A stretch of DNA of 26,501 nt, taken from a virus. Its lineage: Duplodnaviria > Heunggongvirae > Uroviricota > Caudoviricetes. Shown here piece after piece: positions 6,001 through 9,000 of this stretch. Position numbers: made by a program. Every line of letters begins with the position of its first letter. The first letter of the stretch is position 1. The stretch spans positions 1 through 26,501 of the IMG/VR virus record IMGVR_UViG_2534682163_000012; one strand, 5' to 3'.

Positions 6001-9000
6001 TTTTGCCTTGCTGGTGGGTAGCTTCTCGGTTAACACGATGTACCGTATAATCAGCACCGCGTGTGGTTACTGAATACGCTCACCAAAGTAAAACTCAGGC
6101 TGATATTCACGTATCAGCCTTTTTTCTTCTTCCTCCAGTTCACGTTTTTTGCGCTTACATGCCTGTAGCGCCCTCCCCTTCTCGCTGGCACTTATCTGGT
6201 ATTGCTCTTTGCGGCGGGAAAAATCCTGTAATGCACCCCACGGGATACCATAAGCCCCCGTTTTTCTGATACCCAGTATCACATTTCTGAATACCCAGTT
6301 ACTGAAACGATGGGCGAATGTGCCTTGCGTCGTTGCTTTGCGGCTACGGGCTATTAGTTTGTAGAAACCTGACTCAGAGATAATGCTCATATTCTGATTT
6401 CCTCCTGGGGTGTAAGTTAAATTTACTCCCTTTTCATCATCATCAAGCATCTGCAACGCCGTACGCGAATTGGTCAGTTCCAGCGCAGCGCAGACATCCT
6501 TTGCAACAAACCACGGATCGCCGTTCAGATACACCACGCGAACGTTCACACTATCAAAGCGCAGAACGACCAGATCACGAAAATCACAGATTTTTTTACA
6601 TGACGTGCGTCACCCTTGCCCGTCACGGCAATATTTTTATTCATTTCTTTTTTACCTCACATACAAAAAACCCCGCATTGCACGCGGGGTATGAAAGATA
6701 TTATTAGTGGGGATTGGCTTGTTCTCGTTGTTTATCTAACCATGCTTCTACATCTCTACGGTGCCAGGTATGTCGTCGTCCAATTCTGAACGGCTGAGGA
6801 AAACCATTATTCTCATCTTTCCAGAAATTGATGAATGCACTCATTGCTCCATATCGCAAGATTTTCATTACGTCTTTAGTAAATAAAATATCTTCATTGG
6901 TATTCATTTGCTGAACCTCCTCAACCATTTACAACTCTTAAACCTTTCATACCACCGGATCTATTAATTACCCCTTTTCTCGCATCATCAAAAAAATCAC
7001 CGACCCATTGCATCATGATCTTACGCTGTTCTAGATAAATAGTTCTATTATAAATATCTCTTATTTTATCACCACTTTTATGCGCCAATGCAGCCTCGAT
7101 TACATCGGGGTTAAATCCCTCCTCATTTAAAAGCGTACTCCACATTGAACGAAAACCATGTAACGTTACAATCCCTTTGAACTTGCTGGCAGCAATTGGG
7201 GTCTTGATAGTATTCCTCCCCATAGGCGCATCTTTTGTTCTGGAGGAAAAAAACACATAACGCCCTCTTTTTATTTCCTGCATTGTTCTGAGGATACTAA
7301 TAGCCTGTGATGACAAGGGAACAACATGTTCACGATGGCATTTCATTTTATGCGCGGGGATAATCCACAAGCCAGAATCAAAATCAATCTCTGACCACTC
7401 TGCTTTAATCGCCTCACCTGGCCTGACCATTGTCAATATCTGGAATAAAAGTGCATTATGAGCTATTTGATAGGTATGAGGCACACTATCCCACCAGCTC
7501 AGAAATTCAGGCAATCTTTCAACAGGTAGTGCTGCTAATGATTTATTTTTCTTTCCTGTGAATGCAGTCTTTATCTTAAGTAATGGATTTGTTTTCAATG
7601 TTCCACAATTTACAGCATAATTCATAATTTCATTTAATCTTGATATTAATTTTTTTTGCAACGCATTCTTATCGGATACGGCATCCAGAGCATTAATAGC
7701 TACTGGTGCTGTAATTTTTTCTATACTGTACTTACCAAAGAAAGGAACAAGATATTTGTATACTTCATATTCGATATTATACAGCGTAGGTTTCCGCAAT
7801 TCAGATCCCTTTTTAAAAGCGAACCATGCATTAGCAACAGCTTCAAATGTCTGTAGATTTTTTAGTGACATCTCAATTTTACGATTTTTCTTCTCCGTCA
7901 CTGGATCAACTCCACGTGCAATCATTCGCCGAAGTTCATCACGTACTTCCCGTGCTTCCGCGAGTGAGAATTCAGGAAAACGTCCTATCGTGTATGTCTG
8001 CCGTTTCTTCGTTATCGGATGGCTATAACGGAAACGCCACACTTTCCCACCGGCTTTACTCACATTCAGCAATAAACCGAACCCATCATAAACGGCATAG
8101 TCCTTTTCACGTGGTTTCATCCCCTTAACTTCAGTCACGGTTAATGGCTTTACCGACATCTATCGCCCTCATTTTTTAGTCCGTCATGTAGTCCATTCAA
8201 GCCAATAACAAGCGATAAACTAACTCATTATCAAGCAAAGAGAGGAAACTCATAAAATCACAACTCATTGAAAAGACTATGAAACGACACCAGAACATAC
8301 AAACAGGTAAGAAATGTACCCTACATCCAAAAACTTGCTATTCTGGAATTTCGGGGGGTTCCGGTGATACTGCCATCCGCCGCTGCCCGTTCGCCTTCCC
8401 GCAGCCAGATCCCCTGGTTATTCAGTTCACGCTTCTGTTCCGGAGCAATCAGGCCGCGGCAGTGCGGACACATCAGGCGGGCCGCCTGCCCGGCAGCCAC
8501 AAAATCAGGGTTATTCCGGTAACCGGTCATGTTATCCATCACCGGCTGAAAATATTCCCCGCAGTGCGGACACGGCCAGTACCACCGGCGGCGGTCTCCC
8601 CGGTTATACAGTGACAGGATCCCCGTTGTTGGCGGTGCCTCATGTGCGCCACCACAACGCCATTTGGTGTCAGTGATATCCCGCCCCGGTGAACTCTCGA
8701 CCAGGGTCATCCCCGAGGACATAAAGGTGGTGGTACGCTTTGAGGCCAGCGTGAAGGCATCCCCTTCCCCGTCCACGTTTTCAGGGAAACGGTCATAATC
8801 CGTCAGCGCCACACGACGGTAATCCGAAGAGGAAAATACAGTGATCGACGGCCAGCCAATCTTCAGGAAGGAGCCGTCAAGAAACATTTTATCGTGGACG
8901 TTGTTGTCATTACGGGAAGGACTGAGGCGCTTGCTGACCTCCGGACTGTGGCGAAACGTCCTGGAAAGACGCGTTCTGGAATGCTCACGCGCCTTCGTCT

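Follow-up and report, generated by a model that had tools for sequence, protein, structure and literature searches.

The Bro-N gene of a phage satellite inserted in an Escherichia coli prophage is split by the loss of a single base in the 26,501-nt stretch of DNA analysed here (the window), and this is very probably a real, heritable and otherwise ordinary pseudogene-like frameshift allele that marks one satellite clone. The window is IMG/VR record IMGVR_UViG_2534682163_000012, positions 1 to 26,501, and corresponds to the entire contig AFEX01000019.1 of E. coli STEC_O31. The frameshift allele is already known, in that identical alleles have been flagged in RefSeq.

Read on the minus strand from 6700 to 6500, the locus consists of a terminator, GTGAGGTAAAAAAGAA, and then a coding sequence that starts ATG AAT AAA AAT ATT GCC GTG ACG GGC AAG GGT GAC GCA CGT CAT GTA AAA AAA TCT GTG ATT TTC and ends ATA GTG TGA. 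The ATG of the Bro-N gene lies at 6644–6642. A Shine-Dalgarno sequence, GAGG(T), was read at 6658–6655, 10 nt 5′ of this ATG, and the GAGG is identical in the intact alleles of related loci L002 and L003. From the ATG there is a leader open reading frame (ORF) of 32 codons (6644–6546), with the translation MNKNIAVTGKGDARHVKKSVIFVIWSFCALIV and a TGA stop at 6548–6546. It is made up of the authentic first 18 codons of Bro-N (MNKNIAVTGKGDARHVKK), whose residues are identical to those of the intact homologs P0093 and P0019, followed by 14 out-of-frame codons and the TGA. A run of seven adenines (A7) lies at 6597–6591 (T7 on the plus strand). The Bro-N protein continues in the −1 frame relative to the leader ORF, and this frame is open from 6609, immediately after a TGA at 6612–6610, down to 6067 and reads RTSCKKICDFRDLVVLRFDSV..., with no ATG, GTG or TTG ahead of a GTG at 6549. 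The 160-aa ORF that begins at this GTG (6549–6067, minus strand) contains the Pfam Bro-N match and the conserved C-terminal helical part, and it alone was called in the deposited annotation of the contig, as a 'BRO family protein' (EJK96998.1).

Insertion of one base after the A7 run produces a protein of 192 aa. Residues 1–52 of this repaired protein are identical to P0093, its best match is P0018 (95% identity, 100% coverage) and intact homologs of 192–194 aa that are collinear with it number in the hundreds; the homolog search gave 1594 matches, and the top 120 were nearly all full length. The Pfam Bro-N profile matched residues 34–122 with 70.8 bits, above the gathering threshold of 25.6 and wholly within the 160-aa ORF, while PHROG 2593 ('anti-repressor') matched across the whole repaired protein with an E-value of 1e-83. 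In the window no single uninterrupted ORF runs from the conserved start of the family, the frame being split at 6591–6597. As two frames match one protein family end to end, these alignments exclude a chance pattern. The initial annotation had described a split start here, with the ATG and its GAGG, the 32-codon ORF, the A7 run and a Bro-N frame lacking an ATG, and had held that one added A would restore the protein; the ORF listing and the homologs bear out both claims. With the normal allele, ribosomes would start at the ATG at 6644 and make a 192–193-aa protein composed of an N-terminal Bro-N domain of DNA-binding type and a long C-terminal helix. In the STEC_O31 lineage one base was lost at the junction of the A-run and the following T; translation from the same ATG now ends after 32 codons, so that full-length Bro-N would no longer be the main product.

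The state of the tract in other copies was determined by counting exact matches of 80 or 81 nt across 5,426 complete genomes of E. coli (95 of which have the region), by aligning 21 related loci, with haplotypes compared across 760 nt, and by a gapped pattern scan of the tract in IMG/VR and the JGI metagenomes. The commonest state was a Phe-type allele (50 exact matches among the 95 genomes), in which GT is followed by AAAAAAA-T-TCTG, encoding Val-Lys-Lys-Phe. Another 17 genomes matched an Ile-type allele with eight adenines (A8; AAAAAAA-A-TCTG, Lys-Lys-Ile), and two had a frameshifted sequence one base short (AAAAAAA-TCTG, hereafter A7-TC). The remainder were 81-nt variants with single-nucleotide polymorphisms (SNPs) in the flanks, all listed rows being of intact length. 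In IMG/VR and the metagenomes, 15 copies had the extra T, four had the extra A, one had neither and none had two extra bases. Neither A9, A8 plus T nor any other +1 variant was present in the ∼115 copies from all of these sources. Further intact variants encode Lys-Lys-Val or Lys-Asn-Phe (Lys-Asn in P0018), and in L073 the run is an interrupted A6 (GTGAAAAAATTC). An intact 579-nt gene is annotated by the Prokaryotic Genome Annotation Pipeline (PGAP) in L002 and L003, and about 97% of copies have the single-ORF layout.

On this alignment, the lesion is a one-nucleotide deletion at the 3′ junction of the A7 run (6591–6597, minus strand) with TCTG, and the length of the A7 run itself is normal. 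The initial annotation had pointed to tract length in relatives as a check, and the comparison upholds the lesion but not A8 as the sole intact state: A7 followed by TTC is found in about three quarters of the intact copies, with A8 as a minority intact state.

The missing base was not confined to the window. The two short copies among the complete genomes, in RM10410 (FS611_RS07665) and 2014C-3097 (C6W73_RS23405), are both described as 'frameshifted' by PGAP, and the identical sequence is present in GCA_002460085, GCA_001012025, six Logan assemblies of Sequence Read Archive (SRA) runs and one IMG/VR contig. In all, at least 12 assemblies besides the window carry it. They come from different projects, and several match the window with 100% identity along 5–6 kb. 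Furthermore, the A7-TC allele travels with linked SNPs as three haplotypes: A (L001 and L067), B (the window, L004, L005 and L007–L009) and C (L010, L011 and L066). The RM10410 copy has the same gene, lesion and satellite family as the window and is 99.9% identical to it over 761 nt, but its satellite occupies an off-target chromosomal site beside pgrR. The 2014C-3097 copy, likewise alike in gene, lesion and satellite family, differs by belonging to haplotype C and by its RepA-helicase replication module. The window haplotype differs from both by an additional Pro to Leu change. One database protein, P0005 (174 aa, 'MCDFRDL...'), seemed to offer an alternative start, but was rejected as the same A7-TC allele called from an ATC (L067) or from a contig that starts within the run (L068).

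The initial annotation had allowed for a homopolymer sequencing or assembly error, with the true genome being intact. The window is indeed a draft contig of the 2012 era, and L009, which Logan assembled from an old run (SRR058480), has extra frameshifts in the terL and int genes that are typical of reads prone to homopolymer errors. Nevertheless, recovery of the identical allele from two finished RefSeq genomes, at least nine other assemblies and one IMG/VR contig, together with its co-segregation with linked SNPs in three haplotypes, makes an error of this kind nearly negligible as an explanation. The extra frameshifts of L009 (224–1230 and 1392–2629) are absent from the window and the other assemblies and are themselves probably homopolymer read errors; data of this family thus do contain artefacts of that kind, but the bro lesion is not one of them.

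The three frameshifted haplotypes are each other's nearest relatives, lying 1–3 SNPs apart in 760 nt. Within the 5,426 complete genomes, haplotype C has no intact twin and its nearest relative is another frameshifted haplotype. A single origin of the deletion is the parsimonious reading of these haplotypes, and an inherited allele of one clone fits the pseudogene reading put forward in the initial annotation. The same annotation had also suggested a phase-variable switch, in which slippage in the A-run would toggle the satellite Bro-N gene at high frequency. Runs of A7 or A8 are prone to slippage, and genes of E. coli contain fewer of them than expected (Sharma et al. 2014, PMC4066793). Over 760 nt, the run is the sole difference between the intact A8 copy L002 and the frameshifted L001 (haplotype A). 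Both states would be expected to coexist under such a switch, but ON and OFF were not seen together within one clone: the frameshifted clone was sampled in 14 carriers, and every one of them is A7-TC and thus OFF, with no reversion, despite there having been time for SNPs to accumulate and for moves to four or more sites. OFF copies are few (about 2% of the complete genomes with the region, 2 of 95, and 1 of the 20 IMG/VR and metagenome copies), the ∼115 copies include no A9 or +1 form, and a long run is not conserved, most intact copies being A7 plus T, with A6 in L073 and Lys-Asn in P0018. A contingency switch is therefore very improbable, and the relatedness of the haplotypes, their uniform OFF state, the absence of +1 copies and the unconserved run all argue for one stable, clonally inherited mutation instead of reversible slippage. 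Cross-genus homologs (from Providencia, Serratia, Erwinia, Klebsiella and others) have different N-termini, with A6–A7 runs only at other positions, and are uninformative about this tract.

Several considerations weigh against reading the allele as a single, dead lineage. Firstly, the parental allele is ambiguous, the nearest intact relatives being the Ile-type L002 (0 SNPs in 760 nt) and the Phe-type OkiPb01714 (L075), which has two SNPs, both synonymous, relative to haplotype A and shares its downstream module. Two losses could therefore have produced the allele, that of an A from A8, leaving A7, or that of a T from TT. On mechanistic grounds slippage is far more probable in a run of eight bases than at TT, so A8 to A7 is more likely than loss of T from the commoner A7-TTC allele. 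It is conceivable, though unlikely, that the Ile-type allele is a slippage revertant of such a frameshift, produced by loss of T from the Phe-type and then gain of an A, which would make the junction a slow evolutionary toggle. Secondly, the deletion may have recurred in near-identical backgrounds; we rejected recurrent independent slippage on account of haplotype C, with its frameshifted nearest relative and lack of an intact twin. Thirdly, loss of function is something we infer, and two features of the locus could allow some expression. The TGA of the leader overlaps the GTG of the 160-aa ORF as GTGA (6549–6546, minus strand), a possible site of termination-reinitiation as judged from its coordinates, and the resulting 160-aa product would retain the whole Pfam Bro-N match. 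In addition, the run forms a slippery heptamer, GU[A_AAA_AAA]_UCU, of the X_XXY_YYZ type and in the zero frame of the leader; a −1 shift on it would read AUC UGU GAU... in the Bro-N frame, giving ...VKK-ICDFRDL..., identical to intact Ile-type proteins.

The split gene might accordingly still be expressed, either as an N-truncated protein of 160 aa by reinitiation at GUGA or as low levels of Ile-type protein by −1 ribosomal or transcriptional slippage on A_AAA_AAA_U, and persistence and spread of the frameshifted clone would be in keeping with this. We consider it unlikely. With regard to slippage, the 60–90 nt downstream fold no better than shuffled sequences (z −0.29 and −1.07), giving no predicted stimulatory structure, and unstimulated slippery motifs in E. 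coli give only 2–10 times a background of 0.055% (PMC4066793). Programmed −1 frameshifting was rejected on the lack of structure beyond that of shuffles in the 55–100 nt around or downstream of the run and on these published efficiencies of well below 1%. The site resembles the programmed −1 sites of insertion sequence (IS) elements and dnaX (A_AAA_AAG or A_AAA_AAC) in having an in-phase A-rich heptamer where two frames overlap. It differs from them in lacking a predicted stimulator, in having A in place of G at the third codon position, and in that the two-frame layout is an unconserved and recent mutation and not a conserved design.

With regard to reinitiation, the GTG at 6549 has no preceding Shine-Dalgarno sequence, and the protein made from it would lack residues 1–32 and with them D24, V27 and F30, which are conserved in a 41-sequence alignment. 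The truncation would also remove the first β-strand (residues 25–30) of the N-terminal sheet in an AlphaFold2 (AF2) model of P0093, and in the alignments to other anti-repressor PHROG families homology starts at residues 24–30 of the repaired protein. Retention of a single ORF in about 97% of copies shows no conserved two-frame arrangement among the homologs and implies that the two-ORF layout has not been selected; the Pro to Leu change of the window, at an invariant site, points instead to decay. Reinitiation and slippage are therefore regarded as minor leaks and not as a design. A stronger version, in which the A7-TC allele is not dead but supplies a tuned-down or N-truncated Bro-N regulator by GUGA reinitiation or rare −1 slippage that is tolerated or even favoured, seems to us decidedly unlikely; if true, a live attenuated or truncated regulator would explain the continued spread of the satellite clone to new helper prophages and chromosomal sites. 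Inside bro, at 6390–6410 (minus strand), there is also a perfect AGGAGG with an in-frame ATG 9 nt further on (the Met of ...GGNQNMSIISESG...), which could start a 107-aa C-terminal fragment. This is probably a chance occurrence, because the motif is absent from sister subfamilies (…GIRGNPNHS…).

The gene product is related to the Bro-N/KilA-N/APSES-type proteins ('phage antirepressors', PF02498; PHROG 2593) through its Pfam and PHROG matches. It differs in that the copy here is interrupted, and for this satellite subfamily the name 'antirepressor' is no more than a label from annotation. For intact P0093, the AF2 model had a mean predicted local distance difference test (pLDDT) score of 70, with 69–89 per 10-residue block over residues 21–120. 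A Foldseek search with this model returned as top hit the N-domain of baculovirus Orf22 (4ye7; template modelling (TM) score 0.62–0.66 on the target, E-value 2e-3) and then the Mbp1 APSES domain, these scores being weak; a sequence search of the PDB found no solved homolog.

The clone carrying the deletion is ≤0.2% divergent over 4.2 kb and was found in four contexts: terL of the window type; a terL only 73% identical to it (L004); an intergenic site beside pgrR (L001 and L078); and an ABC-ATPase gene (L067). At the three non-canonical junctions, a core that resembles TTGGATG or is shorter (GATG) is common to the junction and the terL site, which fits the off-target chromosomal integrations reported for helper-embedded phage-inducible chromosomal islands (HE-PICIs; Tommasini, Mageeney & Williams 2023, PMC10111431). 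Near-identical satellites at chromosomal sites were noted beside pgrR (L001 at ∼1420–1430, and L078), in a DUF7024 gene near lgoD (L002 at ∼1430) and in the ABC-ATPase gene (L067 at ∼1260); these junctions have only a TTGGATG-like or GATG core in common with that in terL.

Both of the SNPs in the Bro frame that arose within the frameshifted clade are nonsynonymous. Haplotype C has an Ala to Ser change. Haplotype B, that of the window, has a second, haplotype-specific lesion at 6275 (minus strand), where CCG to CTG replaces by Leu the Pro of the motif VIP(S/G)IRK (P125 of P0093), a residue that does not vary among 41 homologs drawn from many genera. Two intact alleles differ from one another only synonymously. 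Although the numbers are tiny, they point to relaxed constraint on the frameshifted gene.

The satellite occupies the window from position 1 to ∼8333, representing its integrase-proximal part. Its gene order is int, AlpA-like, terminator, bro, a pair of YlcI/YnfO genes in the opposite orientation, C4 with isrK, Icd-like, DUF4222 and a D5-type primase. The integrase (6921–8159, minus strand) is an intact tyrosine recombinase of 412 aa with Arm-DNA-bind_3, Phage_int_M and Phage_integrase domains. Next to it, at 6704–6907 (minus strand), is a 67-aa AlpA-like helix-turn-helix regulator or excisionase of the PICI integration zone; it is identical to RefSeq WP_001095275.1, is named 'AlpA family' in H23 and matches a PHROG excisionase/regulator family. 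A strong intrinsic terminator (6670–6690, minus strand; 9-bp stem, T6) separates the alpA-like gene from the bro ribosome-binding site. No sigma-70-like or other promoter-like site was found between this terminator and the ribosome-binding site, and so we infer that bro would be transcribed by read-through of the terminator, as could happen if late transcription coming from the helper were antiterminated.

The satellite is inserted in terL of a Stx2-type lambdoid prophage, just past the GpA_ATPase domain and co-oriented with terL. In the window the 5′ part of helper terL (8321–9328, minus strand) has a complete GpA_ATPase domain by Pfam and is interrupted at ∼8327–8333 by junction alignment; in L003 (1661–14131) both terL halves flank a 10.3-kb island. 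HE-PICIs have been described as insertions in prophage late genes with four zones (Integration, Bro, Replication and Late), the genes of the Bro zone being dynamic, domain-swapping and mostly of unknown function (PMC10111431). The likeness here extends to insertion within, and co-orientation with, a late gene of a lambdoid prophage (gene A/terL), to an int plus AlpA module, a Bro zone with C4/isrK-type RNAs, a primase/SSB (single-stranded DNA-binding protein) replication zone and a late zone, and to occasional off-target chromosomal insertions. In the window we found insertion in a prophage late gene and the zone order of int plus AlpA, Bro with immunity RNAs, and primase. By this arrangement, the element is a helper-embedded PICI, an already published class, and the Bro-N gene belongs to its 'Bro zone'. 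The frameshift is not discussed in the HE-PICI paper. A search of its supplement for relevant accessions or a GpA site name gave no match, and the terL site was not confirmed among the 14 published sites.

The immunity RNAs are Rfam matches to C4 antisense RNA at 3877–3964 (minus strand; 75 bits) and to isrK at 3989–4065 (minus strand; 63 bits), an RNA pair of the P4 CI/seqA type. They lie within a 444-nt segment (3676–4119) in place of which the sibling PICIs L001, L004, L007, L067 and L075 have only ∼108 nt. On the same strand as bro, a frame of 765 codons is open from 5931, just 3′ of bro, to 3634, where the Icd-like/Phage_ASH gene ends, and is antisense to the YlcI/YnfO genes. The equivalent frame is open for 260–653 codons in all related loci examined; its translation looks non-protein-like, and a relationship to the P4 eta/kil/CI arrangement is possible. 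In the prophage part of the window, an ORF of 319 aa at 14846–15805 (minus strand) has a Pfam RIP domain and the region matches stxA2-annotated prophages, which places the Shiga toxin 2 operon of that helper on the contig.

The appropriate label for the gene on this contig is a frameshifted pseudogene of Bro-N instead of the 160-aa 'BRO family protein' EJK96998.1. Beyond annotation the finding has little significance: a mobile element has an accessory gene with an ordinary frameshift associated with a homopolymer. Given a single origin of the deletion, several rounds of excision and integration must have followed it, and full-length Bro-N would then appear dispensable for excision and integration. 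As a modest by-product, the occurrence of a clone with a broken bro gene in two helper terminase genes and at two off-target chromosomal sites offers a hint as to the roles of the 'antirepressors' of Gram-negative PICIs.

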